Of a stretch of 64,000 bases of DNA, positions 17,984-18,617 are shown piece after piece (position 1 is the first letter of the stretch; every line of letters begins with the position of its first letter). Source of the DNA: Shigella phage sb4. The position numbers and the translations under genes are program-made. The notes below the pieces were generated by a model. That model saw nothing but the letters and a program-made list of their open reading frames with translations, was not told the origin of the DNA and made no database searches. The DNA lies in sequence record PQ666542; one strand, given 5' to 3'.

Positions 17984-18617
17984 TCAACTACCTCAATATC
18001 ATACACTTTAAATGTTCCAAATGAATCATGTAATTTTTCTTTTGAAATAGAAGTTATTTTATTCTTTCCAATTGGAACCATCCATTCTTGTTCACGTACA
18101 ATCATCATTAAGTTATCTGTACGTTCTGAATCTAATCCATCAGTATCTTCATATGTATACTTAAACTCAGTATTAGGAGAAGAAAGTATAATATCACTGA
18201 TATGGTCATAATAATTAAAAGCTTTATCAGTTTTTAAGCGAAATATTATTTCAGTGTAATATTCAACATAAGAAAAACCCCGCATGCTGTGTGCAAACTA
18301 GTAGTAAATGAATCTACTCTATTCGTTGAAAACACTTCTCCAGCTTGTAAATCTTTAATGAGTTCTTTTGTCGATTTTGATATACCACGATATAGCTGAT
18401 AAGGCGATTTAGTTAAATGATTTTTAACGATTTTATTCAACTGCTGATGAAGAGCTTCATTCTTTTTGGCTTCCATACATTGCAAAAGAATTGACTGTTC
18501 AAAGTCAGTAAATTTTTCACAGACATTTTTATACATATCATATTGAAAATCGACACTTTCAGCTTTTATAGATAACTGTTCAACATCTGCGAGATTAAAA
18601 ATCATGATAGCCTCCAT
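17980..18617 (-). CDS. modB: ADP-ribosyltransferase ModB; frameshift near 18246-18290
   Basis: two overlapping track ORFs in different frames sum to about 207 aa. Confidence 0.6.

Follow-up and report, generated by a model that had tools for sequence, protein, structure and literature searches.

The modB gene of Shigella phage sb4 (sequence record PQ666542) is split by a frameshift in a run of guanines. This disruption is very likely an artefact at the level of the sequence and not a real feature of the phage. The initial annotation of the window, the whole stretch of 64,000 nt that was analysed, had described a frameshift splitting modB and had thereby implied a biological interest of the locus. 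The literal reading is borne out by alignment to intact modB genes, with the indel located where it had been placed. The implied interest is not: the frameshift is one of approximately 40 private gene-disrupting lesions, which are spread over the window and also affect essential replication genes. What it reflects is therefore the origin or the quality of this sequence and not modB itself.

The modB locus and its frameshift

[quoted passage not shown] It carries an R-S-EXE motif, and mutation of Arg73 abolishes ADP-ribosylation as well as RNAylation (PMC10468400). T4 with an inactive ModB (R73A,G74A) is viable, with an approximately 4-fold lower burst and a delayed lysis (PMC10468400). In the window, the gene for this ADP-ribosyltransferase and RNAylating enzyme of T4-type phages occupies positions 17980..18605 on the minus strand and is disrupted. 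The assignment is based on protein alignment, on PHROG 832 and on colinearity with the annotated modB-modA of five relatives (ECp13, T4_ev240, ESh16, pSs-1 and sb2). The gene order is that of the T4 locus, modB being followed by modA with an overlapping stop and start, and then by a srd-like gene. The position also matches the relatives: the gene lies in the early region, flanked by dda/srd and modA.2-like ORFs. All genes of the region around modB are on the minus strand.

Two minus-strand ORFs had been reported and were found: 18246..18617 (123 aa), ending in SLHTACGVFLMLNITLK before its stop codon, and 17980..18285 (101 aa), beginning with MRGFSYVEYYTEIIF (MRGFSYVEY...). Their overlap of 40 nt (18246-18285) and the GGGG/TTTTT run in it (G4 at 18278-18281, T5 at 18273-18277) were equally reproduced. 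The N-terminal ORF required a correction. An ORF reaching to 18617 exists, but homology places the start of modB at the ATG 18603-18605. The start codon annotated in relatives corresponds to 18605, and the upstream ATG at 18617 falls within the Shine-Dalgarno sequence, a GGAGG at 18611..18615 on the minus strand, 5 nt upstream of the modB start. The total of about 207 aa had been recognized as the length of ModB. In agreement, the 626 nt from 18605 comprise the 624 nt of the relatives (207 aa plus stop codon) and two inserted bases.

The insertion is located at 18278..18281 on the minus strand, in codon Gly109. Four guanines are present in place of the two in relatives, with the T5 run directly adjacent. 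In codons, relatives read TGC/TGT GGT TTT TCT, where the window has TGC GGG GTT TTT CT. The DNA alignment across the indel presents GCATG(T/C)GGTTTTTCT in the relatives versus GCATGCGGGGTTTTTCT in the window. Over 57 nt at the site, only two differences separate phage sb2 from the window, GG instead of GGGG and one C>A substitution downstream that is private to the window.

The N-terminal fragment (18246..18605, minus strand, 119 aa) comprises ModB residues 1-109 including Arg73, followed by ten out-of-frame residues (VFLMLNITLK) and a TAA. The C-terminal fragment (17980..18285, minus strand) is in the -1 frame and comprises residues 109/110-207 with Ser111 and Glu171-x-Glu173; in the protein alignment, it covers residues 109-207. 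Its ATG (18283-18285) is fortuitous, and no Shine-Dalgarno sequence or ribosome-binding site was found in the sequence upstream of it. Compared with the ModB of a T4-derived strain, the N-terminal fragment is 87% identical over the aligned part, the ten out-of-frame tail residues being counted as mismatches, and the C-terminal fragment is 95% identical over its aligned part. The two fragments match PHROG 832 ('RNA polymerase ADP-ribosylase') at positions 1249-1348 (E = 1e-18) and 1347-1438 (E = 1e-14), respectively. A chance arrangement of ORFs would not account for the split, because the fragments match contiguous parts of one profile and adjoining residues of ModB. A Pfam scan of both fragments and of the intact ModB and ModA of sb2 yielded no family at E <= 0.01 and is uninformative for this family. 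A PDB sequence search with a T4-type ModB retrieved no solved relative.

Arg73-Gly74 (LYRG) and Glu171-Gln-Glu173 (REQEW) are retained in the modB sequence of the window. Unlike in T4 ModB, they are not part of one polypeptide, Arg73 being encoded in the N-terminal frame and Ser111, Glu171 and Glu173 in the -1 frame. An uninterrupted ORF of about 207 aa is replaced by ORFs of 119 aa and 101 aa. The truncated product of 119 aa would be inactive: Arg73 is retained, whereas Ser111 and the catalytic Glu171-x-Glu173 are missing.

The case that would speak against a frameshift, two separate genes in relatives, was not encountered: every annotated relative inspected has a single modB of 207 aa. A query of 1.6 kb at the site matched 502 phage records with 90-99% identity, nearly all of them Tequatrovirus (T4-like) phages of Escherichia, Shigella and Yersinia. 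Among the 40 matches listed, 37 were annotated at the match, and all 37 have modB and modA as single adjacent genes. In ECp13, T4_ev240, ESh16, pSs-1 and sb2, a modB of 624 nt (207 aa) overlaps the start of a modA of 603 nt (200 aa). The ModB proteins of T4_ev240, sb2 and pSs-1 share 99% identity (1-2 differences); the copy in the window has 11 private amino acid changes.

None of the six aligned relatives has the +2 insertion. A query of 111 nt centred on the site matched 352 records of INPHARED phages, the best with 96.4% identity and none with at least 99%; the best matches span 109 bases of the subject. Scans for the exact pattern of the +2 allele yielded no match in IMG/VR and none in GTDB genomes. 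A scan of JGI metagenomes yielded one match (contig Ga0209515_10003316, 3970-4019), which shares only the 21-mer. It was rejected as a +2 allele. The contig is unrelated, and the 21-mer constitutes the 3' arm and the T-tract of a terminator-like hairpin, CCCCGCAT...ATGCGGGGTTTTT. This hairpin of the contig, CCCCGCATCCTGCATGCGGGGTTTTT, represents a chance match to the 21-mer.

Lesions and private substitutions in the window

Two neighbours of modB are disrupted as well. The gene for the second ADP-ribosyltransferase, modA (17381..17983, minus strand), is interrupted at codon 32 (17888-17890) by a private in-frame TGA, where all relatives have GGA (Gly); the rest of its 200-codon frame is open. 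The srd-like gene (16517..17264, minus strand), a 'putative anti-sigma factor' in ESh16, has a private frameshift from A6 to A7 at ~16841. Thus, three adjacent early genes are broken. Approximately 25 substitutions in the modA-modB stretch are private to the window; the majority are non-synonymous, and many are transversions. Because of the TGA in modA and the private substitutions near modB, the comparison was extended to the full 64 kb.

Shigella phage pSs-1 (KM501444 / NC_025829) and the window are colinear, without rearrangement, in HSPs of 32 kb at 97.1% and 34 kb at 96.8% identity. Positions 1-64000 start at the coordinate origin of the pSs-1 record, and offsets remain between 0 and 10 nt over the 64 kb. 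The same start is found in the records of sb1, sb2 and sb3. The shared origin suggests that the record was oriented on, or derived from, the pSs-1 reference. An in-frame insertion of 6 nt relative to pSs-1 (TAAATT on the plus strand, 51950-51955), located in a gene of ~340 aa without assigned function, looks like natural variation and not like noise.

The 127 coding sequences of pSs-1 that lie in the window, annotated on the minus strand, were mapped onto it. This revealed 33 premature stops in 26 genes, five frameshifted genes and two lost stops, in total approximately 31 of the 127 genes being disrupted. The affected genes on the minus strand include several that are indispensable to a T4-type phage, with functions in replication and recombination. 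The DNA polymerase gp43 carries a GAA to TAA change at codon 178 (32043-32045), confirmed by direct translation; the region of this stop had no match of at least 99% among 501 phage records. The clamp loader proteins gp62 (33025-33588) and gp44 (33590-34549) have premature stops at codons 45 and 143 and at codon 245, respectively. Premature stops are also present in gp47 (38110-39129, codon 59) and in the endonuclease VII gp49 (46829-47302, codon 67), and a 1-nt deletion causes a frameshift in nrdD (45016-46832). Further premature stops were found in rIIA (twice), rIIB, dda and many small ORFs, besides that in modA. Unlike the window, pSs-1 and sb2 (PQ666540), both of the genus Tequatrovirus, have intact modB, modA, srd-like gene, gp43, gp44 and gp62. 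Four of the five coding frameshifts are length changes of homopolymers, A6 to A7 at ~16841 (srd-like gene), G2 to G4 (modB), C3 to C4 at ~20045 and A to AA at ~56447; the fifth is the deletion in nrdD.

Private changes were defined as sites at which one of four genomes (window, pSs-1, sb2, ECp13) differs from the other three, and were counted over positions 6000-30000 of the window. Within these 24 kb, private substitutions number 322 in the window versus 195-199 in each control. Transitions and transversions amount to 180 and 142 in the window, versus 153-169 and 30-45 in the controls. Private missense changes number 120 versus 32-66 and nonsense changes 8 versus 0-1, the changes in the controls being mostly synonymous. 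The excess of approximately 125 changes per 24 kb, or ~0.5%, comes on top of the normal divergence of the lineage and consists mainly of G:C>T:A and A:T>T:A. For the unselected expectation, the spectrum of the excess was applied at random to the same coding sequences. Synonymous, missense and nonsense changes account for 19.7/72.7/7.6% of the observed excess, versus 17.7/73.8/8.5% predicted. The additional layer of substitutions is unfiltered by selection. Private transversions reach 5-7 per kb in the essential topoisomerase, gp41 and uvsX too. In modB, their density of 12.8 per kb is about twice the window mean of 5.9 per kb, and four other genes range from 13.9 to 17.7 per kb.

The sequence context of the private transversions was inspected. 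The new base equalled its neighbour no more often than in transitions, clustering was only mild and a dominant motif was not apparent. The 33 new stops consist of 28 TAA, 5 TGA and no TAG. A share of ~17% TAG was predicted from the spectrum of the excess (P ~0.002), and the noise process thus seems to disfavour new TAG codons. A few stretches have no differences from pSs-1 at all, among them 59158-59909 (~750 nt with four small genes), 3114-3324 and 4666-4860. Such stretches are unexpected under a uniform divergence of 3% plus 0.5% noise.

Origin of the lesions

The record would represent a normal Tequatrovirus sequence that is overlaid with a genome-wide layer of approximately 0.5% unselected private substitutions and of homopolymer indels. 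The expansion from GG to GGGG at codon 109 of modB would belong to the same layer. The noise may originate from sequencing or assembly errors or from artificial alteration of the sequence. Some sequencing platforms are known to have difficulties with glucosyl-hydroxymethylcytosine, a base present in T-even DNA. A phage with such a genome could not replicate: ochre codons interrupt gp43, gp44 and gp62, and the 64 kb contain 33 premature stops in total as well as five frameshifts. Several observations count against an artefact. Inactivation of ModB is tolerated by T4, so a real frameshift in modB is biologically possible (PMC10468400). The transversion density of modB is above the mean, and the noise is not perfectly random, given the absence of TAG and the difference-free stretches.

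A first alternative is a genuine loss of function. In a real lineage, ModB may have been lost through G-run slippage, and ModA and Srd may be gone as well, all three belonging to a dispensable early block for host takeover that is decaying. In that case, the remaining lesions, or part of them, would be independent sequencing errors. The breakage of the adjacent srd-like gene, modA and modB fits such a decay, as do the viability of T4 with inactive ModB (PMC10468400), the plausibility of G-run expansion by replication slippage and the somewhat raised density of private transversions in modB. However, similar lesions occur at comparable density in the essential gp43, gp44, gp62, gp47 and gp49. 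The clustering of lesions is therefore not specific to dispensable genes, and approximately 31 of the 127 mapped genes are affected. In a natural pseudogene, essential genes would be spared and under purifying selection, and related isolates or contigs would have the lesion in common. Here, the excess mutations bear no sign of selection anywhere, and the +2 allele occurs in no relative and in none of IMG/VR, GTDB, metagenomes and INPHARED. Genuine loss is thus unlikely. One form of it, a real lineage in which srd-like gene, modA and modB are all inactivated and the lesions in essential genes are unrelated sequencing errors, is very improbable. If true, both small ADP-ribosyltransferases would be knocked out naturally, and ModB-dependent RNAylation would be dispensable in the wild. 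A natural modB frameshift, if real, bears on the need for ModB-catalysed RNAylation of ribosomal proteins outside the laboratory.

A second alternative is recoding. A programmed -1 ribosomal frameshift or transcriptional slippage on GGGGTTTTT would restore ModB with one additional residue and tune the dose of a toxic enzyme. The C-terminal frame is indeed -1 relative to the N-terminal frame, and both overlap across the G4T5 tract. A slip of the P-site tRNA-Phe on GTT TTT C would yield ...CGVFSYVEY..., which is ModB plus one Val. The overlapping 0/-1 ORFs and the homopolymeric tract in the overlap resemble the programmed -1 frameshifting of dnaX and of the phage tail chaperones G/GT. Unlike these systems, the locus has none of the three defining features, a canonical heptamer, a stimulatory structure and conservation, and programmed frameshifting was rejected on these grounds. 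An X XXY YYZ heptamer is missing from the zero frame (TGC GGG GTT TTT CTT ATG). The folding of the RNA downstream is unremarkable, with an MFE of -11 kcal/mol and a z of -1.6; among 200 shuffled sequences, 17 fold equally well. The layout of two ORFs is not conserved, relatives having one ORF and none of the 352 records matching the site with at least 99% identity. A T5 tract is too short for efficient transcriptional slippage. Dozens of other lesions in the window are beyond rescue by recoding, which is thus a highly improbable explanation. The probability is practically negligible that stop suppression or an alternative genetic code reads TAA and TGA, so that the genome is functional and modB is the only real type of lesion to be explained. 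The restriction of the new stops to TAA and TGA would be in line with it. However, the replaced codons specify E, K, L, S, Q, Y, G, W and R, which does not amount to a consistent reassignment, and TAA is also used at normal gene ends. No tRNA gene was found in the window, the five frameshifts are left unexplained, and the missense excess is equally unselected. A suppressor tRNA or an alternative code was rejected due to the lack of a tRNA in the window, the variety of replaced codons and the frameshifts.

With sequence noise as the preferred explanation, the result is cautionary. Given ~0.5% unselected substitutions, 33 stops and five frameshifts, all split genes, pseudogenes and nonsense codons reported from this window should be regarded as noise unless reads or independent isolates support them.

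Disrupted genes shared with relatives

Some disruptions are common to the window and a relative. Two TAA codons, at 21152-21154 (codon 152 of gene 56) and 29207-29209 (codon 35 of imm), are present in sb2 and absent from pSs-1 and ECp13. They may be real variants of the lineage, e.g. a shorter dCTPase, or shared problems of annotation or sequence. The sb2 record annotates gene 56 with 150 aa and leaves imm unannotated. A lost stop at 12907-12909 (CAA) is shared with ECp13. In the ECp13 record, rIIA is annotated in two pieces (1-2016) and gene 56 as two overlapping ORFs (15346-15863). Disrupted genes occur in deposited Tequatrovirus genomes too, at a far lower density than in the window.
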